From the NCBI RefSeq assembly GCF_000027125.1, contig NC_017626.1: DNA of 64,000 nucleotides, one strand, 5' to 3'. Below the pieces are notes generated by a model. That model did not search any database and was not told the origin of the DNA. It saw nothing but the letters and a program-made list of their open reading frames with translations. This document shows, piece by piece, positions 44,747-60,770 of the stretch. The translations under genes were made by a program, and so were the position numbers. The DNA is from Escherichia coli 042. GTDB taxonomy: Bacteria > Pseudomonadota > Gammaproteobacteria > Enterobacterales > Enterobacteriaceae. The stretch's first letter is position 1, and every line of letters begins with the position of its first letter.

Positions 44747-45244
44747 TTAATACCCGTCGCGTTTAGTCGTCGCTTCGCTTAATTTTTGTCCGCCATATTC
44801 TGAAATTATCCCCACGCAGTTACCCGCCAGAAAACCCAGTAATGTCACTGTCCAGTTCATCCCGCTGGCAAAAAATAGCGTCATGCCGAGAAAGCCTCCG
44901 GGAATAAAAGACAATAAACCGAAACGTCCTTGCCAGACCACCACCGCCGAGAAGGGTACAGTCATAATCACGCTCGCCCAGAACGTGGACAATCCACTCA
45001 CCGAGGCCAGCCAGCCGGCAGCCAGCGCGGCGAAAAACGCCCACACCATCCCGGAATAATTAACCGCCAGACTTCTGATAAACCCCGATTTACCGCCGCC
45101 TGCGGCATAAAAACTGCAAAAGGCGACGAAGCCAATGGTTCCTAATAATTCCCATCCCTGAGAGAGCCCGACATGTGAAGACACTAACTGCCAAAGCCCT
45201 GCACAAATACCGACGGTGACACCCGTTGCCGTGAGTCCGTTCAT
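44747..45244 (-). CDS. yahC: YahC, small inner-membrane protein
   Basis: 165-aa highly hydrophobic ORF upstream of yahB on the same strand. Confidence 0.8.
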   Translation of the reverse strand: MNGLTATGVTVGICAGLWQLVSSHVGLSQGWELLGTIGFVAFCSFYAAGGGKSGFIRSLAVNYSGMVWAFFAALAAGWLASVSGLSTFWASVIMTVPFSAVVVWQGRFGLLSFIPGGFLGMTLFFASGMNWTVTLLGFLAGNCVGIISEYGGQKLSEATTKRDGY

Positions 45245-45501
45245 CTTGTTCCCCTCTGGTTAGACATGGACGAAAGCTACTCTTACATGTGCAGACTATA
45301 GAGAAATAAAACCTGATTGAGTGAAAGGGTATCGGGTCAAAGAAACAAATATTGCACTACCGCACACTGCGAAAAGATTGTTGAACATCATTCAACAAAA
45401 AGGCGAAATACGGCGAATTAAATTTAAGCGGGTTCTTTTATCAGATTATCGTTGCTATTCTCAATTCATCGAAAACAGCCACAAAAACCAGGGGAATGTG
45501 A

Positions 45502-46107
45502 ATGACTATAAAAAATCTACCTGCCGACTATTTATTGGCTGCGCAACAGGGTGATATCGATAAAGTAAAAACCTGCCTTGCGCTGGGTGTCGATATTAAT
45601 ACCTGCGATCGTCAGGGGAAAACGGCAATTACGCTGGCAAGTTTATATCAGCAATATGCTTGCGTTCAGGCATTAATTGATGCCGGAGCGGATATTAATA
45701 AGCAAGATCAAATATGTTCAAATCCTTTTTTAATTAGCTGCCTGACCGGCGATTTAACCCTGTTACGGATTATTTTATCGGCTAAACCCGATCTTAATTG
45801 CGTCACCCGTTTTGGCGGTGTCGGCCTGACGCCTGCCTGTGAAAAAGGCCATTTAAGTATTGTAAAAGAGCTTTTGGCGCATACGGAGATTAACGTTAAC
45901 CAGACCAACCATGTTGGCTGGACGCCGCTACTGGAAGCAATTGTGCTTAATGATGGCGGGATTAAACAGCAGGCGATTGTCCAGTTATTGCTGGAACACG
46001 GTGCCAGCCCGCACATGACGGATAAATATGGCAAAACGCCGCTGGAACTGGCGCGGGAACGAGGCTTTGAAGAGATTGCGCAGTTACTGATTGCCGCAGG
46101 TGCATAA
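45502..46107 (+). CDS. yahD: YahD, ankyrin-repeat protein
   Basis: 201-aa ORF with consecutive ankyrin repeats (G.TAL..A...G....V..LL..GADIN). Confidence 0.85.
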   Translation: MTIKNLPADYLLAAQQGDIDKVKTCLALGVDINTCDRQGKTAITLASLYQQYACVQALIDAGADINKQDQICSNPFLISCLTGDLTLLRIILSAKPDLNCVTRFGGVGLTPACEKGHLSIVKELLAHTEINVNQTNHVGWTPLLEAIVLNDGGIKQQAIVQLLLEHGASPHMTDKYGKTPLELARERGFEEIAQLLIAAGA

Positions 46108-46146
46108 ACCGGGAGGCTTGCTATCAACACACCAGAAAGACGGTGT

Positions 46147-47010
46147 GTGTGGGCGCTAACTGCGGATGCTGATTTTCTGGCGCAGCGGGGGCAAGGACAG
46201 GTTGAACAGGTCTTTGCCAGAGCGGTAAATATCGCACTTCCGGCCCGCCAGCAGTTGCTGACGCTGCTTTGTGAAGAGTACGACAATGCGCCAAACAGTT
46301 GTCGGTTGGCACTCACTCACTTTGATGATCTGTTCCGGCATGGTGATAAGGTTCAGTTTGACGATCAAGGCATTACGGTTGGTCAACATCTTCATATAGA
46401 GATGAGTCGTTGTCGGCGTTGGCTGTCCCCAACCTTGCAAATGACCGCTGTGAATTTTCACCTTATCGCCTGGCAACAGTGGCATGACATTATTCATCAG
46501 CACCTGGGGGAAAATGAAACCCTGTTTAATTATCGCGGCGATAATCCGTTTTATCAGGCGTTAAATAAAGAATTACATATTAAACGACAGGCAGTTATTC
46601 AGGCAGTAAACGATAAACAAAATATCGCCTCAGCGGTCGTCAGTATGATGGGCTTAGGGATTGGCCTTACGCCATCAGCCGACGATTATTTAACAGGTCT
46701 GGCGCTTATTTTATTTATTTCCGGACATCCGTCGGAAAAATACAAAGAGGAATTTTATCTCGGTCTGCAACGCGGCAGAAATAATACCACGTTATTAAGT
46801 GCCATAACGCTGGAAGCCGCATTACAACAACGCTGCCGGGAAAATATTCATCGTTTTATTCATAACATTATTTATGACATCCCTGGGAACGCAACTCAGG
46901 CAATAGAAAAAATTAAACATATTGGCTCCAGTTCCGGCTGCGACATGCTGTATGGCATGGCCGATGGTTGTGCGCTGAGCCAAACCTACGGAGGGAATTA
47001 TGTCAGTTAA
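46147..47010 (+). CDS. yahE: YahE (DUF2877), YlbF-like
   Basis: 287-aa ORF; overlaps the yahF start by 11 nt. Confidence 0.8.
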   Translation: MWALTADADFLAQRGQGQVEQVFARAVNIALPARQQLLTLLCEEYDNAPNSCRLALTHFDDLFRHGDKVQFDDQGITVGQHLHIEMSRCRRWLSPTLQMTAVNFHLIAWQQWHDIIHQHLGENETLFNYRGDNPFYQALNKELHIKRQAVIQAVNDKQNIASAVVSMMGLGIGLTPSADDYLTGLALILFISGHPSEKYKEEFYLGLQRGRNNTTLLSAITLEAALQQRCRENIHRFIHNIIYDIPGNATQAIEKIKHIGSSSGCDMLYGMADGCALSQTYGGNYVS

Positions 47011-48547
47011 AATAGTCATTAAACCGAATACCTATTTTGATTCTGTCTCGCTGATGTCTATCTCCACGCGTGCAAATAAACTCGACGGCGTCGAGCAGGC
47101 ATTTGTGGCGATGGCGACCGAAATGAACAAAGGCGTACTGAAGAATTTAGGGCTGCTGACGCCGGAGCTGGAGCAGGCGAAAAACGGCGACCTGATGATT
47201 GTCATTAACGGCAAAGCGGGCGCAGACAACGAGCAGTTGCTGGTGGAGATTGAAGAACTGTTCAACACCAAAGCGCAAAGCGGCTCGCACGAGGCGCGTT
47301 ACGCCACTATTGCCAGCGCCAAAAAGCATATCCCGGAAAGTAACCTGGCGGTGATTTCGGTCAACGGTCTGTTTGCTGCTCGCGAAGCGCGTCAGGCACT
47401 GCAAAACGATCTTAACGTGATGCTGTTTTCCGATAACGTCTCAGTTGAAGATGAACTGGCGCTCAAACAACTGGCCCACGAAAAAGGGCTGCTGATGATG
47501 GGGCCAGACTGCGGCACGGCGATTATCAACGGCGCGGCGCTCTGCTTTGGTAACGCCGTGCGTCGCGGCAACATCGGTATTGTTGGCGCATCTGGCACCG
47601 GCAGCCAGGAGCTGAGCGTCCGTATCCATGAATTTGGCGGCGGCGTTTCGCAACTGATTGGCACCGGCGGGCGCGACCTGAGCGAGAAAATCGGCGGCCT
47701 GATGATGCTCGACGCCATCGGGATGCTGGAAAACGATCCGCAAACTGAAATCATTGTGCTTATCTCCAAACCGCCTGCGCCTGCGGTGGCCCGCAAAGTG
47801 CTGGAACGCGCACGTGCCTGCCGCAAGCCGGTGGTGGTCTGCTTCCTCGGTCGTGGCGAAACGCCAGTGGATGAGCAGGGGCTACAGTTTGCCCGCGGCA
47901 GTAAAGAGGCGGCATTGAAAGCGGTGATGCTCTCCGGCGTGAAACAGGAACATCTCGAGCTGCATACGCTGAACCAGTCGTTGATTGCTGACGTGCGCGC
48001 TCGCCTGCAACCGCAGCAGAAATACATTCGTGGCCTGTTCTGCGGCGGTACGCTGTGTGACGAAACCATGTTCGCGGTGATGGAAAAACATGGCGATGTC
48101 TACAGCAATATTCAGCCCGATCCTGAATTCCGCCTGCAAGATATCAACCGCAGCATCAAACACACCTTCCTCGACTTTGGCGATGACGACTTCACCAACG
48201 GCAAGCCGCATCCAATGATTGACCCGACCAACCGTATCAGCCGCTTGATCGAAGAGGCGCGCGATCCAGAAGTGGCGGTGATCGTGATGGATTTTGTGCT
48301 CGGATTTGGATCGCATGAAGATCCGGTCGGTTCCACCATCGAGGCGATCAAAGAGGCGAAAGCGATCGCCGCTGCCGAAGGACGTGAGTTGATCATTCTC
48401 GCCTATGTGCTGGGTACCGATCTTGATACGCCATCATTAGAACAACAAAGCCAGATGCTGCTTGATGCCGGAGTGATTCTGGCAAGCAGCAGCACCAATA
48501 CCGGATTGCTGGCGCGTGAATTTATCTGCAAAGGGGAGGAAGCCTGA
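47000..48547 (+). CDS. yahF: YahF, FdrA-like protein with succinyl-CoA-synthetase-alpha-like CoA-binding fold
   Basis: 515-aa ORF; Gly-rich nucleotide/CoA-binding segments (GIVGASGTGSQE, GTGGRD). Confidence 0.85.
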   Translation: MSVKIVIKPNTYFDSVSLMSISTRANKLDGVEQAFVAMATEMNKGVLKNLGLLTPELEQAKNGDLMIVINGKAGADNEQLLVEIEELFNTKAQSGSHEARYATIASAKKHIPESNLAVISVNGLFAAREARQALQNDLNVMLFSDNVSVEDELALKQLAHEKGLLMMGPDCGTAIINGAALCFGNAVRRGNIGIVGASGTGSQELSVRIHEFGGGVSQLIGTGGRDLSEKIGGLMMLDAIGMLENDPQTEIIVLISKPPAPAVARKVLERARACRKPVVVCFLGRGETPVDEQGLQFARGSKEAALKAVMLSGVKQEHLELHTLNQSLIADVRARLQPQQKYIRGLFCGGTLCDETMFAVMEKHGDVYSNIQPDPEFRLQDINRSIKHTFLDFGDDDFTNGKPHPMIDPTNRISRLIEEARDPEVAVIVMDFVLGFGSHEDPVGSTIEAIKEAKAIAAAEGRELIILAYVLGTDLDTPSLEQQSQMLLDAGVILASSSTNTGLLAREFICKGEEA

Positions 48548-49965
48548 TGAGCCAGTCACTGTTTAGCCAACCGTTGAACGTTATTAACGTCGGCATCGCC
48601 ATGTTTAGCGATGATCTGAAAAAGCAGCATGTAGAAGTGACCCAACTCGACTGGACGCCGCCGGGGCAGGGCAATATGCAGGTGGTGCAGGCGCTGGACA
48701 ACATTGCCGATTCCCCGCTGGCGGACAAAATCGCCTCCGCGAATCAGCAGGCGCTGGAGCGCATTATTCAGTCACATCCGGTGCTGATTGGTTTTGATCA
48801 GGCGATTAACGTGGTGCCGGGCATGACGCCGAAAACCATTCTTCACGCCGGGCCGCCGATCACCTGGGAAAAAATGTGCGGTGCGATGAAAGGCGCGGTC
48901 ACCGGGGCGCTGGTGTTCGAAGGGCTGGCGAAAGATCTCGACGAGGCGGCTGAACTGGCGGCCTCCGGGGAGATCTCCTTCTCGCCGTGCCACGAACATG
49001 ACTGCGTGGGATCGATGGCTGGTGTTACCTCGGCCTCGATGTTTATGCACATCGTAAAAAACAAAACCTACGGCAACATCGCTTACACCAATATGAGCGA
49101 GCAGATGGCGAAGATTTTGCGTATGGGCGCTAACGACCAGAGCGTGATTGACCGCCTCAACTGGATGCGCGATGTGCAGGGGCCCATGCTGCGCGACGCG
49201 ATGAAAATTATCGGCGAGATCGATCTGCGCTTGATGCTGGCGCAGGCGCTGCATATGGGCGATGAATGCCATAACCGCAATAACGCCGGGACTACGCTGC
49301 TGATTCAGGCGCTGACGCCGGGGATTATTCAGGCGGGCTATTCCGTCGAGCAACAGCGCGAAGTGTTTGAGTTTGTCGCCAGCAGCGACTACTTCTCCGG
49401 CCCGACGTGGATGGCGATGTGTAAAGCGGCGATGGATGCGGCGCACGGCATCGAATACAGCACCGTGGTGACCACGATGGCGCGTAACGGCGTCGAGTTC
49501 GGCCTGCGGGTCAGCGGATTACCGGGGCAGTGGTTTACCGGTCCGGCGCAGCAGGTGATCGGCCCGATGTTTGCCGGTTATAAGCCGGAAGATTCTGGAT
49601 TGGATATTGGCGACAGTGCCATCACCGAAACCTACGGTATTGGCGGATTTGCTATGGCGACCGCGCCTGCAATCGTCGCGCTGGTGGGCGGTACGGTGGA
49701 AGAGGCTATCGATTTCTCCCGTCAGATGCGCGAAATCACTCTCGGCGAAAACCCCAACGTCACCATTCCGCTGCTCGGTTTTATGGGCGTGCCGTCGGCA
49801 ATCGACATCACCCGCGTGGGCAGTAGCGGCATTCTGCCAGTGATCAACACCGCCATCGCTCATAAAGATGCGGGCATCGGCATGATTGGCGCGGGCATTG
49901 TGCATCCACCATTCGCCTGCTTCGAAAAAGCCATTCTTGGCTGGTGCGAACGTTACGGCGTCTGA
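48547..49965 (+). CDS. yahG: YahG (DUF1116), YlbE-like
   Basis: 472-aa ORF; its ATG overlaps the yahF stop (TGATG). Confidence 0.85.
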   Translation: MSQSLFSQPLNVINVGIAMFSDDLKKQHVEVTQLDWTPPGQGNMQVVQALDNIADSPLADKIASANQQALERIIQSHPVLIGFDQAINVVPGMTPKTILHAGPPITWEKMCGAMKGAVTGALVFEGLAKDLDEAAELAASGEISFSPCHEHDCVGSMAGVTSASMFMHIVKNKTYGNIAYTNMSEQMAKILRMGANDQSVIDRLNWMRDVQGPMLRDAMKIIGEIDLRLMLAQALHMGDECHNRNNAGTTLLIQALTPGIIQAGYSVEQQREVFEFVASSDYFSGPTWMAMCKAAMDAAHGIEYSTVVTTMARNGVEFGLRVSGLPGQWFTGPAQQVIGPMFAGYKPEDSGLDIGDSAITETYGIGGFAMATAPAIVALVGGTVEEAIDFSRQMREITLGENPNVTIPLLGFMGVPSAIDITRVGSSGILPVINTAIAHKDAGIGMIGAGIVHPPFACFEKAILGWCERYGV

Positions 49966-49984
49966 CCTGCAAAGTGCGCGTTGT

Positions 49985-50165
49985 CTCTGCCGGATGCGGC
50001 GTGAACGCCTTATCCGGCCTACGAGTGGCGCGAGAATCTGTAGGCCTGATAAGCGTAGCGCATCAGGCATTTGTCACCATTGCCGGATGCGGCGTGAACG
50101 CCTTATCCGGCCTACGAATGGCACGAGAATTCTAGGCCTGATAAGCGTAGCGCATCAGGCAGTCT
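49985..50165. repeat. REP/BIME element pair (two inverted REP units) between yahG and yahI
   Basis: Two copies of GCCGGATGCGGCGTGAACGCCTTATCCGGCCTACG and two of TAGGCCTGATAAGCGTAGCGCATCAGGC in alternating orientation. Confidence 0.7.
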
Positions 50166-50210
50166 GGCGTTGGTCATAACCCCATCACCCTCTGTAGCGG
50201 ACATAACAAC

Positions 50211-51161
50211 ATGAAAGAACTTGTGGTCGTTGCCATTGGTGGCAACAGCATTATCAAAGATAACGCCAGCCAGTCGATTGAGCATCAGGCGGAGGCGGTG
50301 AAAGCCGTGGCCGATACGGTGCTGGAAATGCTGGCTTCCGATTACGACATTGTGCTGACCCACGGCAACGGGCCGCAGGTCGGGCTGGATTTACGCCGTG
50401 CGGAGATTGCCCACGAGCGTGAAGGGCTGCCCTTAATGCCGCTGGCGAACTGTGTGGCAGATACGCAAGGCGGCATTGGCTACTTGATCCAGCAGGCGCT
50501 GAACAACCGACTGGCGCGTCACAGCGAGAAAAAAGCCGTCACCGTGGTGACTCAGGTGGAAGTGGATATAAACGATCCGGGTTTTGCTCATCCCACCAAG
50601 CCCATCGGCGCATTCTTCAGTGAAAGCCAGCGTGACGAATTACAAAAGGCAAACCCTGACTGGCGTTTTGTTGAAGATGCCGGACGGGGCTATCGCCGCG
50701 TGGTCGCCTCGCCGGAACCGAAACGTATTGTCGAGGCACCTGCCATTAAGGCGCTGATCCAACAAGGCTTTGTCGTAATTGGTGCGGGCGGCGGTGGAAT
50801 TCCGGTAGTGCGTACTGACGCGGGGGATTACCAAAGCGTGGACGCGGTTATCGACAAAGATCTCTCTACCGCGCTGCTGGCCCGTGAAATTCACGCCGAC
50901 ATTCTGGTGATCACCACCGGCGTCGAAAAAGTCTGTATTCACTTTGGCAAGCCGCAGCAGCAGGCGCTGGATCGGGTGGATATTGCCACCATGACCCGCT
51001 ATATGCAGGAAGGGCATTTCCCGCCTGGCAGCATGTTGCCAAAAATCATCGCCAGCCTGGCGTTCCTGGAACAGGGCGGCAAAGAAGTGATTATCACCAC
51101 GCCGGAATGCCTGCCTGCGGCGCTGCGTGGTGAAACGGGCACCCACATTATTAAAACGTAA
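50211..51161 (+). CDS. yahI: YahI, carbamate kinase-like protein (ArcC family)
   Basis: 316-aa ORF; amino-acid-kinase-fold N-terminus (VVAIGGNSI...THGNGPQVG), as in carbamate kinases. Confidence 0.85.
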   Translation: MKELVVVAIGGNSIIKDNASQSIEHQAEAVKAVADTVLEMLASDYDIVLTHGNGPQVGLDLRRAEIAHEREGLPLMPLANCVADTQGGIGYLIQQALNNRLARHSEKKAVTVVTQVEVDINDPGFAHPTKPIGAFFSESQRDELQKANPDWRFVEDAGRGYRRVVASPEPKRIVEAPAIKALIQQGFVVIGAGGGGIPVVRTDAGDYQSVDAVIDKDLSTALLAREIHADILVITTGVEKVCIHFGKPQQQALDRVDIATMTRYMQEGHFPPGSMLPKIIASLAFLEQGGKEVIITTPECLPAALRGETGTHIIKT

Positions 51162-51170
51162 GGACGTAAG

Positions 51171-52550
51171 ATGAAAGAAAACAATAGCCGCCGTGAATTT
51201 CTGAGCCAGAGCGGTAAGATGGTCACCGCCGCCGCGCTGTTTGGTACCTCTGTGCCGCTCGCCCATGCGGCAGTCTCTGGCACAACCCACTGCGACGCGA
51301 ATAACACCATGAAAATCACTGACCCGCACTACTATCTCGACAACGTGCTGCTGGAAACCGGTTTTGACTACGAAAATGGCGTGGCGGTACAGACCCGCAT
51401 GGCGCGCCAGACCGTGGAGATTCAGGACGGTAAAATTGTTGCCCTGCGCGAGAACAAGCAGCATCCGGACGCCACGCTGCCGCACTATGACGCTGGCGGT
51501 AAGCTGATGCTGCCCACCACCCGCGACATGCATATTCATCTCGACAAAACCTTCTACGGCGGGCCGTGGCGCTCGCTCAATCGTCCGGCAGGCACCACTA
51601 TCCAGGACATGATCAAACTCGAGCAGAAAATGCTGCCGGAACTGCAACCGTACACTCAGGAACGAGCGGAAAAACTGATCGATTTATTGCAGTCGAAAGG
51701 CACCACCATTGCCCGCAGCCACTGCAATATCGAACCGGTTTCCGGCCTGAAAAATCTGCAAAATTTGCAGGCGGTGCTGGCGCGACGTCAGGCGGGCTTC
51801 GAGTGTGAAATTGTCGCCTTCCCGCAGCACGGTTTGCTGCTGTCGAAATCGGAACCCTTAATGCGCGAAGCGATGCAGGCAGGGGCGCATTACGTCGGCG
51901 GGCTGGACCCAACCAGTGTTGATGGCGCGATGGAAAAATCCCTCGACACCATGTTCCAGATTGCGCTGGACTACGACAAAGGCGTCGATATTCACCTACA
52001 CGAAACCACTCCGGCAGGCGTGGCAGCCATCAATTATATGGTTGAAACGGTAGAGAAAACGCCACAGCTGAAGGGCAAGCTGACCATCAGCCACGCCTTT
52101 GCGCTGGCAACGCTCAATGAGCAACAGGTAGATGAACTGGCGCACCGGATGGCGGCGCAGCAAATTTCTATCGCCTCGACGGTGCCGATTGGCACGTTGC
52201 ATATGCCGCTCAAACAACTGCACGACAAAGGCGTAAAAGTTATGACCGGCACCGACAGCGTTATCGACCACTGGTCGCCTTACGGCCTGGGCGACATGCT
52301 GGAAAAAGCCAATCTGTACGCGCAGCTCTATATTCGTCCTAACGAACAGAACCTCTCCCGCTCGCTGTTTTTAGCCACTGGCGATGTATTGCCGCTCAAC
52401 GAAAAAGGCGAGCGCGTGTGGCCCAAAGCGCAGGATGACGCCAGTTTTGTGCTGGTGGACGCCTCCTGTTCCGCCGAGGCGGTGGCGCGTATCTCGCCGA
52501 GAACGGCAACGTTCCATAAAGGACAACTGGTGTGGGGGAGTGTGGTGTAA
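51171..52550 (+). CDS. yahJ: YahJ, metal-dependent amidohydrolase/deaminase with twin-arginine (Tat) signal peptide
   Basis: 459-aa ORF; N-terminal SRREFLSQSGKMVTAAALFGTSVPLAHA is a Tat motif with h-region and AxA site; amidohydrolase-superfamily His/Asp metal-ligand pattern. Confidence 0.85.
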   Translation: MKENNSRREFLSQSGKMVTAAALFGTSVPLAHAAVSGTTHCDANNTMKITDPHYYLDNVLLETGFDYENGVAVQTRMARQTVEIQDGKIVALRENKQHPDATLPHYDAGGKLMLPTTRDMHIHLDKTFYGGPWRSLNRPAGTTIQDMIKLEQKMLPELQPYTQERAEKLIDLLQSKGTTIARSHCNIEPVSGLKNLQNLQAVLARRQAGFECEIVAFPQHGLLLSKSEPLMREAMQAGAHYVGGLDPTSVDGAMEKSLDTMFQIALDYDKGVDIHLHETTPAGVAAINYMVETVEKTPQLKGKLTISHAFALATLNEQQVDELAHRMAAQQISIASTVPIGTLHMPLKQLHDKGVKVMTGTDSVIDHWSPYGLGDMLEKANLYAQLYIRPNEQNLSRSLFLATGDVLPLNEKGERVWPKAQDDASFVLVDASCSAEAVARISPRTATFHKGQLVWGSVV

Positions 52551-52669
52551 CGTTATCAGCGAGGATATCCGGGCAGGCACTATTCCGATTTTAAAACCCG
52601 ATATCCTCTGCGTTTTGCCCATGACGTACACTGCGGATTATCTTTTTTATCCAGGGATGGATAGACGCC

Positions 52670-53317
52670 GTGAAATTTCTTTGGTTATCGCTGTTGTTTC
52701 TGAGTCAGGCCGTCCTGGCAACTTGCCCTGCTGGAAATTCACAACACGAATGCGAGGCGGTGCGCATACAGCCCCTGGTCACGCCGGAGCAGAAAAAAGA
52801 TGCCTTAACGCAATTGCAAAAGTTTCAGCAAGCGCTGAGTGCAAAGAATGCCACGAAACTAAAAACCTTCTTAAAATTCCCCTACGATACCTATTTCGGC
52901 TTTCTCGCTGAGATTGAGTTGCCTGAATCTGAACCCTTCACAGAAGCACTATTTGATCGCCATTCAGAAACCATTATGCGGCGTCTGCATAATGTCACAA
53001 AATTCACGATACATCCGGGTACCCAATGGATTGATGATTATCTCAGTCATTCGCTGACGCCAGCGGAGCAAAAAAGAAAATATTATCCCCTCAATGATGG
53101 ACGTTTCTATTACGAAGAGAAAGGGGAGCGCCACTACGTCACGGGAATATGTGAACTGGCGATGTCGGGGAATATTTCTGACGATGGCATTACGCTGAAT
53201 ATTGGTTCGCAGGCTAATGAACAAATTCCACCGGCTGTTTGTGATGGCACAACTATACTGGAATTTGGCATGATTAACGGGCAGTTAAAGTTATTGCGTG
53301 TTTCTTTTGCGGGGTAA
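52670..53317 (+). CDS. Hypothetical exported protein with four Cys, no family recognised
   Basis: 215-aa ORF from GTG with GGGATGG upstream; signal peptide MKFLWLSLLFLSQAVLA; four Cys in the mature part. No recognisable family, so whether it is a real gene is uncertain. Confidence 0.5.
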   Translation: MKFLWLSLLFLSQAVLATCPAGNSQHECEAVRIQPLVTPEQKKDALTQLQKFQQALSAKNATKLKTFLKFPYDTYFGFLAEIELPESEPFTEALFDRHSETIMRRLHNVTKFTIHPGTQWIDDYLSHSLTPAEQKRKYYPLNDGRFYYEEKGERHYVTGICELAMSGNISDDGITLNIGSQANEQIPPAVCDGTTILEFGMINGQLKLLRVSFAG

Positions 53318-53588
53318 ACGGCGTGTGCGTAATAATTGAATTTCACGGCAGTCTAATTCGCCAGTCACGATACCGCCCCGGTTTTAAGGCGGAAAAGGGA
53401 TATCGCTGGTGCCAGAAAGTGTGATCTGCCACGAAAAACGACACCACTATTGGTCATTAAACTCTCCGGTATCAACGTCTCAGAGCCCATCACGGGCAAC
53501 CATTCATTGGCTATATTGAATGAGCGAGTTTTGCTGCAAAGACGTTCCTCACATCATCCAGATACCTCTTCGAACAGGAGTGAATGCA

Positions 53589-54638
53589 ATGAATATCAAG
53601 GCTATTGGTGCTTATTCCGCGACGCAACCGCTGGAACCGATGGATATTACCAGGCGTGAACCGGGACCGCATGATGTCAAAATTGAAATCGCTTACTGTG
53701 GCGTCTGCCATTCCGATATCCACCAGGTCCGTTCCGAGTGGGCGGGGACGGTTTACCCCTGCGTGCCGGGTCATGAAATTGTGGGGCGTGTGGTAGCCGT
53801 TGGTGATCAGGTAGAAAAACATGCGACGGGCGATCTGGTCGGTGTCGGCTGTATTGTCGACAGTTGTAAACATTGCGAAGAGTGTGAAGACGGGCTGGAA
53901 AACTACTGTGATCACATGACCGGCACCTATAACTCGCCGACGCCGGACGAACCGGGCCATACGCTGGGCGGCTACTCACAACAGATCGTCGTTCATGAGC
54001 GATATGTTCTGCGTATTCGTCACCCGCAAGAGCAGCTGGCGGCGGTGGCTCCTTTATTGTGTGCAGGGATCACCACATACTCGCCGCTACGTCACTGGCA
54101 GGCCGGGCCGGGTAAAAAAGTGGGCGTGGTTGGCATCGGCGGTCTGGGACATATGGGGATTAAGCTGGCCCACGCGATGGGGGCACATGTGGTGGCATTT
54201 ACCACTTCTGAGGCAAAACGCGAAGCGGCAAAAGCCCTGGGGGCCGATGAAGTTGTTAACTCACGCAATGCCGATGAGATGGCGGCTCATCTGAAGAGTT
54301 TCGATTTCATTTTGAATACAGTAGCTGCGCCACATAATCTCGACGATTTTACCACCTTGCTGAAGCGCGATGGCACCATGACGCTGGTTGGTACGCCTGC
54401 GACACCGCATAAATCGCCGGAAGTTTTCAACCTGATCATGAAACGCCGCGCGATAGCCGGCTCTATGATTGGCGGCATTCCAGAAACACAGGAGATGCTC
54501 GATTTTTGCGCCGAACATGGCATCGTGGCTGATATAGAGATGATTCGGGCCGATCAAATTAATGAAGCCTATGAGCGAATGCTGCGAGGAGATGTGAAAT
54601 ATCGTTTTGTTATCGATAATCGCACACTAACAGACTGA
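53589..54638 (+). CDS. yahK: YahK (AhR), NADPH-dependent aldehyde reductase, Zn-dependent medium-chain dehydrogenase
   Basis: ORF 53520..54638; start set at ATG 53589 (MNIKAIGAYSA) with AGGAG SD, 349 aa; Zn-ligand motifs (GVCHSD, CKHCEECEDG) and GxGxxG. Confidence 0.85.
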   Translation: MNIKAIGAYSATQPLEPMDITRREPGPHDVKIEIAYCGVCHSDIHQVRSEWAGTVYPCVPGHEIVGRVVAVGDQVEKHATGDLVGVGCIVDSCKHCEECEDGLENYCDHMTGTYNSPTPDEPGHTLGGYSQQIVVHERYVLRIRHPQEQLAAVAPLLCAGITTYSPLRHWQAGPGKKVGVVGIGGLGHMGIKLAHAMGAHVVAFTTSEAKREAAKALGADEVVNSRNADEMAAHLKSFDFILNTVAAPHNLDDFTTLLKRDGTMTLVGTPATPHKSPEVFNLIMKRRAIAGSMIGGIPETQEMLDFCAEHGIVADIEMIRADQINEAYERMLRGDVKYRFVIDNRTLTD

Positions 54639-54678
54639 AACAATTAATAAATACCCTGTGGTTTAACATATTAACTTC

Positions 54679-54711
54679 GCTCTCCACTTAACTTTTTAGT
54701 TAAGGAGAGCG
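54679..54711 (+). terminator. Strong hairpin downstream of yahK (putative terminator)
   Basis: CGCTCTCC ... GGAGAGCG outer stem with an inner CTTAACT/AGTTAAG stem around a TTTT loop (about 14 bp total with a small bulge); no clear T-run. Confidence 0.4.
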
Positions 54712-54880
54712 AAATAATATCAAAGTAGCGGTAAAACCTATAACGTAAATTCAAATTGTTAAATTAACTCCCTCCAGGACACAATACTTCATACGTTAGT
54801 TATGAGCGATTTCTGATAGTGCCTGGTTTAATCAGGGCTTTATTATCTGCGACGTTTATTTTTATTTAAGAGAGATCGCG

Positions 54881-55696
54881 ATGATATCATTAAAAGCTCC
54901 GTACAATAATTTGATGCCATATACGCAACAAAGCATACTTAATACGGTTAAAAACAATCAGTTACCGGAGGATATCAAAAGCTCCCTGGTTTCCTGTGTC
55001 GATATATTCAAGGTTTTGATTAAACAATATTATGATTATCCTTATGATTGTCGTGATGATTTAGTCGATGATGACAAACTCATTCATCTCATGGCTGCCG
55101 TACGAGACTGTGAGTGGTCAGACGATAACGCACTTACCATAAATGTACAGTTTAATGATTTCCCGGGATTTTATGACTGGATGGATTACCCTGATTACCC
55201 GGTTAAGTTTGTTTTTCGCATACTTGAAAATCAAAAAGGGACAGTTTGGGTATATGACCAGGATGATGCGTTTCTTGATATTAAAGCAAATGTGCAGGCT
55301 GGACGCTTTACCGGGCTTAAGAAATTAGTGCAGTTTATCGATTCAGTGCGAACAGATTGCAAATGTATTCTTCTTGAACACCATATGCCTTTACTGAGAC
55401 TTTTCCCTAAAGGGAAAGAGTGTATGCATGTGGAAAAATGGCTTCGCGAAATGTCGTCTATTCCGGAGAGCGACGCACCAATTAAGCAGGCGCTTGCGCA
55501 TGGATTATTATTACACTTAAAAAATATCTACCCTGTTTTTCCTGAATCGCTGGTGATGTTATTGCTCTCTGTTCTGGACGTAAAAACATACAGAGATGAT
55601 GCGCGATTAAACGAATGGATATCGAATAGAGTGCAGGAATTAGGTGACAGATATTATCCTGTAAATAAGCACGTTAAAATCCGCTACACTCTTTAG
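54881..55696 (+). CDS. yahL: YahL, uncharacterised protein
   Basis: 271-aa ORF in the expected position and size. Confidence 0.7.
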   Translation: MISLKAPYNNLMPYTQQSILNTVKNNQLPEDIKSSLVSCVDIFKVLIKQYYDYPYDCRDDLVDDDKLIHLMAAVRDCEWSDDNALTINVQFNDFPGFYDWMDYPDYPVKFVFRILENQKGTVWVYDQDDAFLDIKANVQAGRFTGLKKLVQFIDSVRTDCKCILLEHHMPLLRLFPKGKECMHVEKWLREMSSIPESDAPIKQALAHGLLLHLKNIYPVFPESLVMLLLSVLDVKTYRDDARLNEWISNRVQELGDRYYPVNKHVKIRYTL

Positions 55697-56108
55697 TTCA
55701 GAAAGGGTTCCACCTGCAAGTTGTTATTCCAGCAGAGAGTGAATCGCAAAGCAGGTGATCATTTCATCTGTATATCCGTATGCCAAATGGCATTCCACCG
55801 CCTTTTTCGCCGATATTTTGTTGTGATCGGCGACGCTTCGCTTAAAAAATCACCAGTAGTAGTTTTGCAGCTATGTGGTGTATAAAAAATGATCTCATGC
55901 AGGTGTTTTGTGAATGTGTGGGTTGACATTCATATGAAAAAAATCATAATTCCATCATGTTTGTGTGGGGTCTTTTCTGTACCTTACGCATCGCACTCAA
56001 GCCTGACAGAAAATATGCTGTAAGGCTCATATCAAAAACCGCCATTAGCTCATCAGGAAGAGCAGACGACAACCAGGATTGTTGTATGGTACGGGGTTCG
56101 AGGCCTCG

Positions 56109-56354
56109 ATGGCGGTCCAACTTTTCATAACTCTTCTGAATCAGCTCCCCTTATTATCATCCCTGCAAAGTGAAACATTGCCATTGTTTGGCTATTCAGG
56201 GCGGGTCAGAGCAATGAAAAAAGCCCACACAGGGGAGAGTGGGCTGAAATGGGAAGCTAAAGACTCAAGTAAACTTATCGGAAATAAGGACCACGCATTA
56301 CGGGGGCTATCATCGCCGATGACCGGGATTTGGCAAATCAGGTTGATTACGTAG
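56109..56354 (+). CDS. yahM: YahM, small uncharacterised protein
   Basis: ORF 56079..56354 (91 aa); internal Met at 56109 gives 81 aa; the reality of this gene is uncertain. Confidence 0.4.
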   Translation: MAVQLFITLLNQLPLLSSLQSETLPLFGYSGRVRAMKKAHTGESGLKWEAKDSSKLIGNKDHALRGLSSPMTGIWQIRLIT

Positions 56355-56370
56355 AGAGTAAATTATCTGC

Positions 56371-57042
56371 TCACCGCTGCATCACCCCTTCGTAAATCAG
56401 GCGTAGCGCGAATATACCAATAATTGCACCAATAACCCGACTGGCAACGCGTTGCATACGCCCATAAGCACGACGCACAGCGGGCAAAGAAAACGCCTGA
56501 CTAAGAAAAACGCGCCAGATAACTGATGCGAGCACAATCCCCGCCCAGGCCATTAAACGTGCCCATGTTGGTGTTTCGGCATTTAATGTTACTGAGAAAA
56601 TACTGATAAAAAATAAAACGGTTTGCGGGTTAGAGAGATCGGTAATTAATCCACGTCGAAAAAAAACATACCAGGGGGCGCTAATCGGTTGTTGTAGTGT
56701 GCTCATTTGCGGTGTTGACTGGCGGCGCATGCTGCACCACGCAAACCATAAGAGATAAGCGCCGCCAACGATTCTGATAAGCAAAAAAATCTCCTCACAC
56801 TGCGTAATTAGCGTTGCAAGACCAAACAAACCCAACCCGGAATAAAATGCATCGCCCAACGCCACGCCCAGTCCGGTCAGCACTCCTGCGCGTCGACCGG
56901 AAGCCAGGCTGGTTTGTACTACCACAAAGAGATTGGCTCCCGGATTAAAAAAAGTAATCACGAACAGTCCTACGGTCAGATAAACGGCGTGCAAAGGATC
57001 CATAGTGATTTCATCCATAAATAAGTGAAGTAACTTCATCAT
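56371..57042 (-). CDS. yahN: YahN, LysE/RhtB-family amino-acid exporter
   Basis: 223-aa hydrophobic ORF with LysE-type topology. Confidence 0.8.
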   Translation of the reverse strand: MMKLLHLFMDEITMDPLHAVYLTVGLFVITFFNPGANLFVVVQTSLASGRRAGVLTGLGVALGDAFYSGLGLFGLATLITQCEEIFLLIRIVGGAYLLWFAWCSMRRQSTPQMSTLQQPISAPWYVFFRRGLITDLSNPQTVLFFISIFSVTLNAETPTWARLMAWAGIVLASVIWRVFLSQAFSLPAVRRAYGRMQRVASRVIGAIIGIFALRLIYEGVMQR

Positions 57043-57188
57043 ATTTCTACCAAAAATAATCGGGTGCGAGAGAGATCACAAAGTGTCTTATTTCCGGTTA
57101 CTGGCGTTTATGCCCTGACTGAACTAATTATTAATCAACCCAATAATGTGGGTGGGTGATAGTGTGATAACAACTCTGGAGCCGTAAT

Positions 57189-57464
57189 ATGAAAATAATC
57201 TCTAAAATGTTAGTCGGTGCGTTAGCGTTTGCCGTTACCAATGTCTATGCCGCAGAATTAATGACCAAAGCGGAATTTGAAAAGGTTGAATCGCAATATG
57301 AAAAAATAGGTGATATTTCAACCAGTAATGAAATGTCGACCGCAGATGCGAAAGAAGATTTGATCAAAAAAGCGGATGAAAAAGGGGCTGATGTGTTGGT
57401 ACTGACCTCTGGTCAAACTGACAATAAGATCCACGGCACGGCAAATATTTATAAGAAGAAGTAA
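57189..57464 (+). CDS. yahO: YahO, small periplasmic protein (DUF1471, YdgH/BhsA/McbA family)
   Basis: 91-aa ORF with signal peptide [21 protein letters not shown] and a single DUF1471-like domain. Confidence 0.75.
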
Positions 57465-57561
57465 TTCTGAACCCTATGTAAACATCCCCGATGCGTAAGT
57501 TTATCGGTGATCATCTATTGAAATTTATGCCGGAGAAAGCGTTCGCGCTGCATTCGGCAGT

Positions 57562-59148
57562 TCAGCTTTTCAGCCGCCGCCAGAACGTCGTCCGGCTGAT
57601 GCCTAAATAATTCGCCGCTGCTGTTTTATCGCCATTAAATTTCTCCAGTGCCTGTAGTGGTGTCAGCAAGGATGGGGCGGGAATTTTCGCCGACTCGCGC
57701 GCCAGTTCCGGCAGTAGCAGCTGCAAAAATTGCGGCGTTAAATCCGGCGTCGGTTCCACACTTAAAAACAGCGCCAGTCGCTCCATCATATTGCGCAGTT
57801 CACGAATATTGCCCGGCCAGTCGTAGTGCACCAGCACGGTTTCGCTTGCCTGTAATCCCTGGCGTAATGCGGCAGAAAACGGGGCGGAGAGCGCCGCCAG
57901 AGACACTTTCAAAAAGCTTTCCGCCAGCGGCAGAATATCCGTCACCCGCTCGCGCAGTGGTGGCAATTGCAGACGCAAAATACTCAGCCGATAAAACAGA
58001 TCACGGCGAAACTGCCCTTGCCGCATATCTTCTTCCAGATTGCAGTGAGTGGCGCTAATGACTCGCACATCCACCGGAACAGGCTGATGCCCGCCGACGC
58101 GGGTGACCTCTTTTTCTTCCAGCACCCGTAACAGGCGAGTCTGCAAAGGTAGCGGCATTTCGCCAATCTCATCCAGAAACAGCGTACCACCGTGGGCGAT
58201 TTCGAACAGCCCGGCGCGACCTCCGCGTCGCGAGCCGGTAAACGCCCCTTCCTCATAGCCAAACAGCTCTGCCTCCAGCAGCGATTCGGCAATCGCCCCG
58301 CAGTTGACGGCAACAAACGGATGTGACTTTTTGCCCTGTCGCGCATCGTGGCGGGCAAAATATTCCCGATGAATCGCCTGGGCCGCCAGCTCTTTGCCCG
58401 TCCCCGTTTCCCCTTCAATCAACACCGCTGCACTGGAGCGGGCATACAGCAAAATAGTCTGCCGTACCTGTTCCATCTGTGGTGATTGACCGAGCATATC
58501 GCCCAGCACGTAACGAGTACGCTGGGCGTTACGGGTGGCATCGTGAGTGTTATGGCGTAACGACATGCGCGTCATATCCAGCGCATCGCTGAATGCCTGG
58601 CGCACGGTGGCGGCGGAATAGATAAAAATTCCGGTCATTCCGGCTTCTTCTGCCAAATCGGTAATCAGCCCTGCGCCGACCACCGCTTCGGTGCCGTTAG
58701 CTTTCAGCTCGTTAATCTGCCCGCGTGCGTCTTCCTCTGTAATGTAGCTACGTTGGTCGAGGCGCAAATTAAAGGTTTTTTGAAACGCCACCAGCGCTGG
58801 AATGGTTTCCTGATAAGTGACAACGCCGATAGAAGAGGTGAGTTTTCCGGCTTTTGCCAGTGCCTGCAACACATCGTAGCCGCTCGGTTTAATCAAAATA
58901 ACTGGCACTGACAGGCGGCTTTTAAGATATGCGCCGTTAGAGCCAGCAGCGATGATGGCGTCACAGCGTTCGCTTGCCAGTTTCTTGCGGATGTAGGTCA
59001 CCGCTTTTTCAAAGCCAAGCTGGATAGGGGTAATGTTCGCCAGATGATCAAACTCGAGGCTGATATCGCGAAACAGCTCGAACAGGCGCGTCACCGATAC
59101 CGTCCAGATAACCGGTTTGTCGTCATTCAGCCGTGGTGGATGTGCCAT
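57562..59148 (-). CDS. prpR: PrpR, sigma-54-dependent enhancer-binding activator of the propionate operon
   Basis: ORF 57562..59160; start set at [10 protein letters not shown] (ATG 59148); AAA+ sigma-54 interaction domain ([13 protein letters not shown]) and C-terminal HTH. Confidence 0.9.
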
Positions 59149-59209
59149 AGCGCACCGCAAAGTTAAGAAACTGAATATTGGGTTTAGTCTTGTTTCATAA
59201 TTGTTGCAA

Positions 59210-59249
59210 TGAAACGCGGTGAAACATTGCCTGAAACGTTAACTGAAAC
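59210..59249. promoter_or_regulatory. Four direct TGAAAC repeats (candidate PrpR enhancer or other binding sites) in the prpR-prpB intergenic region
   Basis: TGAAAC at 59210, 59220, 59232 and 59244 with 10-12-bp phasing (aatGAAACgcggTGAAACattgccTGAAACgttaacTGAAACgc). Confidence 0.4.
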
Positions 59250-59324
59250 GCATATTTGCGGATTACTTCATGACTTTATCTCTAACAAATTGAAATAAAA
59301 CATTTAATTTTATTCAGGCAATTG

Positions 59325-59340
59325 TGGCACACCCCTTGCT
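59325..59340 (+). promoter_or_regulatory. Sigma-54 (-24/-12) promoter of prpBCDE
   Basis: TGGCAC-ACCCC-TTGCT matches the TGGCAC-N5-TTGCW consensus, 46 bp upstream of the prpB ATG and downstream of the TGAAAC repeats. Confidence 0.75.
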
Positions 59341-59386
59341 TTGTCTTTATTAACGCAAATAACAAGTTGATAACAAAGGATGGGCT

Positions 59387-60277
59387 ATGTCTCTACACTC
59401 TCCAGGTAAAGCGTTTCGCGCTGCACTGACTAAAGAAAATCCATTGCAGATTGTTGGCACCATCAACGCTAACCATGCGCTGTTGGCGCAGCGTGCCGGA
59501 TATCAGGCGATTTATCTTTCCGGCGGTGGCGTGGCGGCAGGTTCGCTGGGGCTGCCCGATCTCGGTATTTCTACCCTTGATGACGTGCTGACCGACATTC
59601 GCCGTATCACCGACGTCTGCTCGCTGCCGCTGCTGGTAGATGCGGATATCGGTTTTGGTTCTTCTGCTTTTAACGTTGCGCGCACCGTGAAATCGATGAT
59701 TAAAGCCGGTGCGGCGGGATTGCATATTGAAGATCAGGTTGGTGCGAAACGCTGCGGCCATCGCCCGAATAAAGCGATCGTCTCGAAAGAGGAGATGGTG
59801 GATCGGATCCGCGCGGCGGTGGATGCGAAAACCGATCCTGATTTTGTGATCATGGCGCGCACCGATGCGCTGGCGGTTGAAGGGCTGGATGCGGCGATCG
59901 AGCGTGCGCGGGCCTATGTTGAAGCGGGTGCCGAGATGTTGTTCCCGGAGGCGATTACCGAACTCGCTATGTACCGCCAGTTTGCCGATGCGGTGCAGGT
60001 GCCAATCCTCGCCAACATTACCGAATTTGGCGCAACACCGCTGTTTACTACCGATGAATTACGCAGTGCCCATGTTGCAATGGCGCTGTACCCGCTTTCA
60101 GCGTTTCGCGCCATGAACCGCGCCGCCGAACATGTCTACAACGTCCTGCGTCAGGAAGGCACGCAGAAAAGCGTCATCGACACCATGCAGACCCGCAACG
60201 AACTGTACGAAAGCATCAACTATTACCAGTACGAAGAGAAGCTCGACGACCTGTTTGCCCGTAGCCAGGCGAAATAA
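59387..60277 (+). CDS. prpB: 2-methylisocitrate lyase
   Basis: 296-aa ORF; isocitrate-lyase/PEP-mutase family signature (KRCGHRP). Confidence 0.9.
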
Positions 60278-60289
60278 AAAACGCCCGTT

Positions 60290-60770
60290 GGTTGTATTCG
60301 ACAACCGATGCCTGATGCGCCGCTGACGCGGCTTATCAGGCCTACGGGATGAACTGAACTGTAGGTCGGATAAGACGCATAGCGTCGCATCCGACAACCG
60401 ATGCCTGATGCGCCGCTGACGCGGCTTATCAGGCCTACGGGGTGAACTGAACTGTAGGTCGGATAAGACGCATAGCGTCGCATCCGACAACCGATGCCTG
60501 ATGCGCCGCTGACGCGGCTTATCAGGCCTACGGGGCGTGCTGAACTGTAGGTCGGATAAGACGTATGGCGTCGCATCCGACAACCGATGCCTGATGCGCC
60601 GCTGACGCGACTTATCAGGCCTACGGGGTGAACTGAACTGTAGGTCGGATAAGACGCATGGCGTCGCATCCGACAACCGATGCCTGATGCGACGCTGACG
60701 CGGCTTATCAGGCCTGCGGGGTGAACTGAACTGTAGGTCGGATAAGACGCATAGCGTCGCATCCGACAAC
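60290..60770. repeat. Tandem REP/BIME array (about five copies of a roughly 90-bp composite unit) between prpB and prpC
   Basis: Near-identical units CGACAACCGATGCCTGATGCGCCGCTGACGCGGCTTATCAGGCCTACGGGGTGAACTGAACTGTAGGTCGGATAAGACGCATAGCGTCGCATC repeated head-to-tail with point variants. Confidence 0.75.

Follow-up and report, generated by a model that had tools for sequence, protein, structure and literature searches.

An accessory gene between yahJ and yahK of Escherichia coli encodes a predicted exported NTF2-like domain

Which protein is encoded in the 1-kb interval between yahJ and yahK of Escherichia coli 042, and does its place beside yahJ reflect a shared function? The window analysed here is a stretch of 64,000 nucleotides from this strain (contig NC_017626.1), and the interval holds an open reading frame of 215 codons, referred to below as the ORF. 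The initial annotation had read its product as exported, and as either a periplasmic partner or substrate-related protein of YahJ or an independent small secreted protein. Only the second interpretation stood. It is supported by the signal peptide, the covariation of a Cys pair, a single-domain structure model and the signal sequences of relatives. The reading towards which we lean, by a modest preference, is that the ORF encodes an exported, NTF2-like, disulfide-stabilised binding module that is not specific to YahJ, that has lost a DUF4431 domain and that travels on a mobile haplotype linked to yahJ.

Gene model and selection

The ORF occupies positions 52670-53317 of the window on the + strand, with a GTG start and 215 codons plus stop. 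It lies where the initial annotation had placed it and is the only long frame in the interval, which extends from the yahJ stop at 52550 to the yahK start at 53590. RefSeq already has this gene model: Ecol_316 and all other carriers are annotated with exactly this frame, as hypothetical protein WP_000670937.1. What is new here is a family assignment, which the ORF had lacked until now. In RefSeq annotation it was a CDS, and never a pseudogene, in 59 of the 59 complete carrier genomes, and the exact protein was found on at least 1000 contigs.

Two diverged alleles with about 92% amino-acid identity were found in public assemblies, one in L011-L013, which are Escherichia-like, and the other in L014/L015. 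The frame was intact in all three lineages (the window E. coli, L011-L013 and L014/L015), with identical 215-codon length and the same GTG start, so that conservation of the reading frame in related genomes, on which the initial annotation had made its claim depend, was confirmed. Among the three, dS was 0.20-0.26 and dN/dS 0.13-0.18 (Nei-Gojobori), which indicates clear purifying selection. The ORF is a real gene, far beyond a chance frame.

A domain family absent from the reference libraries

The initial annotation could place the protein in no family, and the libraries agreed. Pfam had no match to the ORF at E <= 10. The only NCBIfam match was to TIGR04454, over residues 3-59, where the score was 14.5 bits (E 0.038) and the cut-off is 35, and neither PHROGs nor NCBIfam had a family match to the ORF and its relatives. 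A word-indexed search of 5.8 billion proteins returned only the ORF's own cluster, and when PDB sequences were searched with a profile nothing rose above noise (E >= 0.28). No relative was detected when 100,044 species-representative genomes were scanned with the ORF, and tblastn against 72,556 plasmids found no match to it. The database and hidden Markov model search that the initial annotation had called for was carried out as a full HMMER search of 1.84 billion representatives, and it recovered 19 relatives. A literature search on DUF4431, WP_000670937 and yahJ with yahK returned nothing relevant.

Enterobacterial relatives were found in Hafnia paralvei, Serratia fonticola, Siccibacter turicensis, Lelliottia wanjuensis, Pseudocitrobacter corydidari and one further species. 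In these proteins, of 307-659 aa, the C-terminus is formed by a domain of about 180 residues that is homologous to residues 36-215 of the ORF (52775-53314, + strand). There is no Pfam model for this domain. In four relatives (P0017, P0018, P0019 and P0028) DUF4431 (PF14485) lies upstream of it, and the 659-aa protein from L. wanjuensis carries DUF4459 and YARHG besides DUF4431.

The closest relative, P0017, is a metagenomic protein of 317 aa. Its residues 132-317 align to residues 36-215 of the ORF with 39% identity and its residues 1-34 align to residues 1-34, while its residues 35-131 are skipped. As both ends of P0017 align, the ORF corresponds to the two-domain form minus about 97 residues that include DUF4431. 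The match to PF14485 in P0017 covers residues 78-126, and this model of about 48 residues was not detected in the ORF by Pfam search. In its place the ORF has a short Cys-bearing remnant, residues 18-35 (TCPAGNSQHECEAVRIQP; 52721-52774, + strand), which contains Cys19 and Cys28, where relatives have the DUF4431 stretch of about 97 residues. The multiple alignment also showed that the loop before Cys191 is shortened in the E. coli ORF.

Loss of a domain raises the question of whether the E. coli gene is a decaying remnant that became non-functional with DUF4431 and is leaving the species. The region of about 97 residues missing relative to the closest relative, the shortened loop, the fact that 99% of E. 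coli and both representative genomes of Pseudocitrobacter lack the gene, and a few truncated forms in the ORF's protein cluster all fit such decay. Nevertheless, the purifying selection reported above, with length and start unchanged in three lineages since DUF4431 was lost, argues otherwise, as do the confident domain model described below and the natural stand-alone versions of the domain in other phyla. We regard decay as improbable.

These stand-alone versions, of about 200 aa, were found in Sebaldella-like genomes and in metagenomes. Two Sebaldella-like contigs carried tandem arrays of paralogues that were 30-48% identical to each other, six at L101:2359-6266 and three at L103:3642-5600. 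All copies had signal peptides, and a PIN/PhoH ATPase gene preceded both arrays. Beyond the array in L101, at a distance of 2.2 kb, lies the gene for a 1411-aa DUF4280 (PAAR-like)/DUF5675 protein.

An AlphaFold2 model of the ORF, built from a 16-sequence alignment, was a confident single domain (pLDDT 95, pTM 0.87). It had the alpha+beta cone expected of the NTF2-like fold, with N-terminal helices on a curved antiparallel sheet of 5-6 strands, and a model of the 317-aa relative gave the same hits. Sequence matches to curated NTF2-clan families were absent for the ORF and absent at E <= 1 for 16 family members. The domain is thus predicted, from the model, to have an NTF2-like (SnoaL/ketosteroid-isomerase-like) fold. 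It is a new sequence family in a very common fold, a useful annotation but an unsurprising one.

The fold is shared by enzymes, and the product could be a small periplasmic isomerase, dehydratase, epoxide-hydrolase-like or iota-carbonic-anhydrase-like protein. The positions conserved in the family are K42, Q48, F52, Q53, P71, Y138, Y148 and N183, and no acidic residue or His is invariant among them. There was no match to enzymatic NTF2 families at E <= 1, and tandem paralogue arrays would be unusual for such enzymes. We consider a catalytic role highly improbable. Many NTF2-like domains are non-catalytic binding modules, and as the conserved residues are K, Q, F, P, Y and N, with no invariant Asp, His or Glu, the domain is more readily read as a binding module than as an enzyme.

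Export signal and cysteines

The ORF product begins with MKFLWLSLLFLSQAVLA, followed after the predicted cleavage site by TCPAGNSQHEC. The signal peptide that the initial annotation had recognised is borne out by its anatomy. Residues 1-17 (52670-52720, + strand) comprise MK with its one Lys, a 15-residue hydrophobic core (FLWLSLLFLSQAVLA; mean Kyte-Doolittle hydropathy 2.0) and V-L-A at -3 to -1, with the signal peptidase I cut predicted after VLA. As read from the sequence, this agrees with the charged n-region, the core of 10-15 residues and the small residues at -3 and -1 that are expected of Sec substrates cleaved by signal peptidase I. Residues 1-34 are 53% identical to the N-terminus of P0017, in an alignment that begins at residue 1, and a signal-like N-terminal sequence was present in nearly all family relatives examined. 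The predicted mature protein has a mass of 22.4 kDa and a pI of 5.7.

Bacterial lipoproteins follow the lipobox rule [LVI][ASTVI][GAS]C at the cleavage site (PROSITE PS51257). The ORF has L-A-T-C, where Thr at -1 to Cys19 does not fit, and together with the sub-threshold TIGR04454 match this led us to reject a lipoprotein. Membership of TIGR04454 itself was rejected too, since the similarity is confined to the signal peptide, the score is below the cut-off and the lipobox is lacking.

All four Cys, at positions 19, 28, 161 and 191, lie beyond the predicted cleavage site, in agreement with the four mature Cys counted by the initial annotation. Two of them, Cys161 (codon 53150-53152, + strand) and Cys191 (codon 53240-53242, + strand), covaried across 31 family members: 21 had C/C, nine had W/(G or M) and one had C/S. 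Since the two are kept or lost together, we infer that they form a disulfide. Such a bond would fit export into an oxidising compartment and so gives indirect support to Sec export. The product is therefore probably exported through Sec, cleaved after Ala17 and joined internally between Cys161 and Cys191.

Association with yahJ

The case for a joint role with YahJ is mainly one of position. The ORF starts 119 nt after yahJ (51171-52550, + strand; a 459-aa allele with the C-terminus ...GSVV*), and yahK (53590-54638, + strand) begins 272 nt past the ORF stop. The distance from yahJ is kept in three lineages though the downstream gene varies (yahK or actP), and no promoter-like site was seen on the + strand of the spacer. 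YahJ carries a twin-arginine leader, SRREFL, and appears in PMC7549933 among the predicted Tat substrates, its function given as unknown. These points would suit a product that is co-transcribed with yahJ and assists this Tat-exported amidohydrolase in the periplasm as a partner, as a chaperone or in handling its substrate.

The distribution of the gene speaks against this. We surveyed the best 80 yahJ loci in species-representative genomes, including those of Pseudocitrobacter, E. albertii, Citrobacter, Kluyvera, Enterobacter and Serratia, and in these other species neither the ORF nor a family member was found within 6 kb of yahJ at any of the 80. The synteny beside yahJ in other Enterobacteriaceae that the initial annotation had proposed to check was therefore not found. 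The segment that carries the ORF is missing from about 99% of complete E. coli genomes, nearly all of which retain yahJ. Distant homologues never adjoin yahJ: relatives lie beside actP-yjcH-acs in Siccibacter, Serratia fonticola and the P0017 organism, and at unrelated sites in Hafnia and in a P. corydidari-type contig. The GC content of the ORF is also strongly unlike that of yahJ, at 45.7% (GC3 46.8%) against 56.5% (GC3 68.7%); that of yahK is 53.6% (GC3 63.6%). With none of the 80 loci carrying a family member and the relatives placed near actP/acs or elsewhere, a dedicated YahJ partnership appears unlikely, and co-transcription with such a role is an explanation to which we give little weight.

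In L014/L015 yahJ and the ORF are succeeded by an actP-like symporter gene in tail-to-tail orientation to the ORF, and the DNA downstream of the ORF is 92.6% identical to that of Pseudocitrobacter faecalis DSM 27453. In P. faecalis itself yahJ has the ...GSVV* allele and directly abuts actP, and the ORF is absent. This junction is compatible with deletion of the ORF, so the linkage to yahJ is best read as positional, that is, as a haplotype common to a few lineages at a hot spot. A partnership with YahJ would leave this ...GSVV* allele without its partner.

Over its whole length, the yahD-yahJ cluster of two Pseudocitrobacter genomes (L016 and L017) was 86-89% identical in DNA to window positions 45141-52550, compared with about 80-81% in Citrobacter and Kluyvera, and it directly adjoins actP-yjcH-acs. 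This identity and position suggest that the yah cluster was transferred between genera.

Small genes follow three of the relatives (126, 113 and 125 aa), but they were mutually unrelated and no conserved downstream partner could be recognised. In the P. corydidari-type contig (L099:9271-10214) a 326-aa relative stands between argS and flhBAE, and after it come a phage-lysozyme gene and an overlapping gene of 125 aa. These neighbours look like the remnant of a prophage lysis cassette.

The spacer after yahJ contains the imperfect inverted repeat that the initial annotation had noted upstream of the ORF. It lies at 52561-52608 (+ strand) just past the yahJ stop, with 12-nt arms (52561-52572 and 52597-52608, 11 of 12 positions complementary) and a 24-nt loop. 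The RNA of the spacer folded little better than its shuffles (z = -1.73; 11 of 200 shuffles folded equally well or better), substitutions in the arms in L011 and L015 were non-compensatory, and an Rfam search at gathering thresholds found no family matching the spacer or the repeat. As there is no T-run terminator either, a terminator or riboswitch-like structure was rejected. The best candidate by eye for an own sigma-70 promoter of the ORF, TTGCCC-18 nt-TATCTT, had 8 of 12 matches, which is under the scan threshold, and was likewise not accepted.

A rare segment at a recombination hot spot

Comparison by blastn with K-12 and a B2 strain placed the ORF in a variable segment of 960 bp (52546-53505; GC 46.7%). 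Its left edge lies within the last yahJ codons and its right edge 84 nt before the yahK start. Of the 5426 complete E. coli genomes, 59 had the segment, in each case with yahJ on one side and yahK on the other and at 99.0-100% identity, and it was absent elsewhere in the carrier genomes even at low stringency. In K-12, B2 and most other strains its place is taken by about 300 bp of DNA unrelated to it, including an annotated 75-bp pseudogene fragment. The possibility that this K-12 intergenic DNA or its pseudogene is a degraded ORF was rejected, as it showed no similarity to the window segment or to the other loci compared.

The segment is linked to the yahJ 3' end. Two C-terminal forms of YahJ were distinguished at window positions 52540-52550, one of 459 aa ending ...GSVV* and one of 460 aa ending ...GSVAG*. 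Every ORF carrier examined had the first, as did L011 and the Pseudocitrobacter representatives L016 and L017, which lack the ORF. The second was found in K-12, B2 and E. albertii, and Citrobacter and Kluyvera mostly had ...VAS*.

Differences per 250-bp bin between the window and Ecol_316 delimited a near-identical block at about 52400-57400, which spans the yahJ 3' end, the ORF, yahK, yahL, a yahM-like gene and yahN. Both flanks, at 50000-52400 (yahI-yahJ) and 57400-59500 (prpR), differed by 2-4%, and the ORF carriers had at least four flank haplotypes. A near-identical block of about 5 kb in diverged flanks fits a segment travelling within E. coli as a recombination block. In L011-L013 the order is yahI-yahJ-ORF-yahK, with yahI-yahJ-ORF 94% and yahK 88% identical to the window. 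In L011, a metagenomic contig that lacks yahL, a 475-bp insertion (L011:3253-3727) lies between the ORF and yahK, at the equivalent of window 53392/53393. With at least five arrangements in Escherichia and relatives, the yahJ 3' end is a recombination and indel hot spot.

Several further observations concern this region. The minus strand of the L011 insertion carries a split, frameshifted yjhX-type toxin gene, the C-terminal 61 residues of which match Pfam YjhX_toxin (E 8.6e-27), with the N-terminal part in a different frame. E. albertii NBRC 107761 (L018 7376-7610) has neither yahK nor yahL, and 236 bp separate its yahJ from the yahM/yahN region. Over 18 kb, the window strain reached 99% identity with none of the complete RefSeq E. 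coli genomes. The window also contains a tandem array at 60299-60770, with 5.1 copies of a 93-bp REP/BIME-like unit and four Rfam naRNA4 (RF02564) matches, and a further naRNA4 copy on the minus strand at 50043-50112, between yahG and yahI.

Possible function

The mechanism that we propose would run as follows. An accessory gene present in about 1% of complete E. coli genomes would yield a Sec-exported product, cut after Ala17, that folds in the periplasm into one NTF2-like alpha+beta domain of about 180 residues held by the Cys161-Cys191 disulfide. The E. coli form would have shed the DUF4431 domain of other Enterobacterales forms and kept an 18-residue, two-Cys remnant. Its role would be non-catalytic: as a module working on its own, it would bind a ligand or partner in the cell envelope, and it would not be a helper dedicated to YahJ. 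The ORF would stand next to yahJ because it belongs to the yahJ-3'-linked ...GSVV* haplotype, which is common to an Escherichia-like lineage and Pseudocitrobacter-like bacteria. Within E. coli it would have spread as a recombination block of about 5 kb onto diverged flanking backgrounds.

Several points weigh against this proposal. The assignment as a binding module draws on the absence of invariant Asp, His or Glu. The ORF directly follows yahJ in all three carrier lineages, so that some functional tie to YahJ specific to these lineages is conceivable, and simple scans of the + strand found neither a sigma-70-like promoter nor a terminator around it. K-12 lacks the ORF, so the standard data sets say nothing of its expression. 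The data also do not polarise the direction of donation between the Escherichia and Pseudocitrobacter-like lineages.

A different role for an exported binding protein would be immunity, with the product binding and inhibiting in the periplasm a toxin or hydrolase that targets the envelope, either the cell's own or a competitor's. Tandem diverged paralogues are a pattern typical of immunity-gene arrays, and the Sebaldella-like arrays of six and three have this form, that of L101 with the DUF4280 (PAAR-like) gene beyond it. One of the enterobacterial relatives has a phage-lysozyme gene 290 bp downstream of it, and the family is sporadic and found at variable genomic spots. The adjacency to a toxin is, however, not conserved, as the L103 array has no DUF4280 gene, and no toxin gene was seen nearby in E. 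coli or in the four other enterobacterial contexts examined. Neither Pfam immunity families nor PADLOC-independent libraries gave a match, and the lysozyme neighbour resembles part of a prophage lysis cassette. We consider the immunity role possible but unlikely. A broader version of it, on which we would place somewhat less trust, takes the domain as a new exported immunity/inhibitor family that occurs as arrays in Leptotrichiaceae, one of them with a PAAR-like toxin gene as its neighbour, and as a fusion to the beta-rich DUF4431 in Enterobacterales. The E. coli copy would then be a trimmed, horizontally moving "orphan immunity" gene directed against an envelope-targeting weapon of competitors.

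The analysis provides a handle, in structure and in evolution, on a hypothetical protein of a minority of E. coli and a possible marker of lineage or recombination at the yah locus. The domain family is missing from Pfam, NCBIfam and PHROGs, and a model of it would annotate the C-terminal half of "DUF4431 proteins". If the immunity reading were true, it would add a new class of exported proteins in inter-bacterial conflict; otherwise the ORF is an ordinary accessory gene.

Comparison with known systems

The exported DUF4431 proteins of Enterobacterales, such as those of Hafnia paralvei (WP_008813597.1, 473 aa) and Lelliottia wanjuensis (659 aa) and P0017, are true homologues of the ORF. The signal peptide, the first mature residues and the C-terminal domain align (30-43% identity, E to 4e-36), and the conserved Cys pair is the same. 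Unlike the ORF, these proteins have the region of about 97 residues. None of them adjoins yahJ and none is of known function.

The TIGR04454 (Lepto_4Cys) lipoproteins resemble the ORF only weakly, over the signal peptide and the first Cys. NTF2/SnoaL-like proteins of known structure (PDB 3h3h, BTH_II0226, and 2rcd, ECA3500) share 7-9% sequence identity with it. They have 110-140 residues, whereas the ORF domain has about 180, is predicted to be exported and probably contains a disulfide. Periplasmic, non-catalytic NTF2-like domains are known from the L,D-carboxypeptidases Pgp2 (6xj7), Csd6 (4xzz) and Bd1075 (7o21), where they are fused to a YkuD-type catalytic domain. The ORF has no YkuD-type domain and resembles these domains in fold only, so that a role in peptidoglycan metabolism by analogy with them would be speculation.
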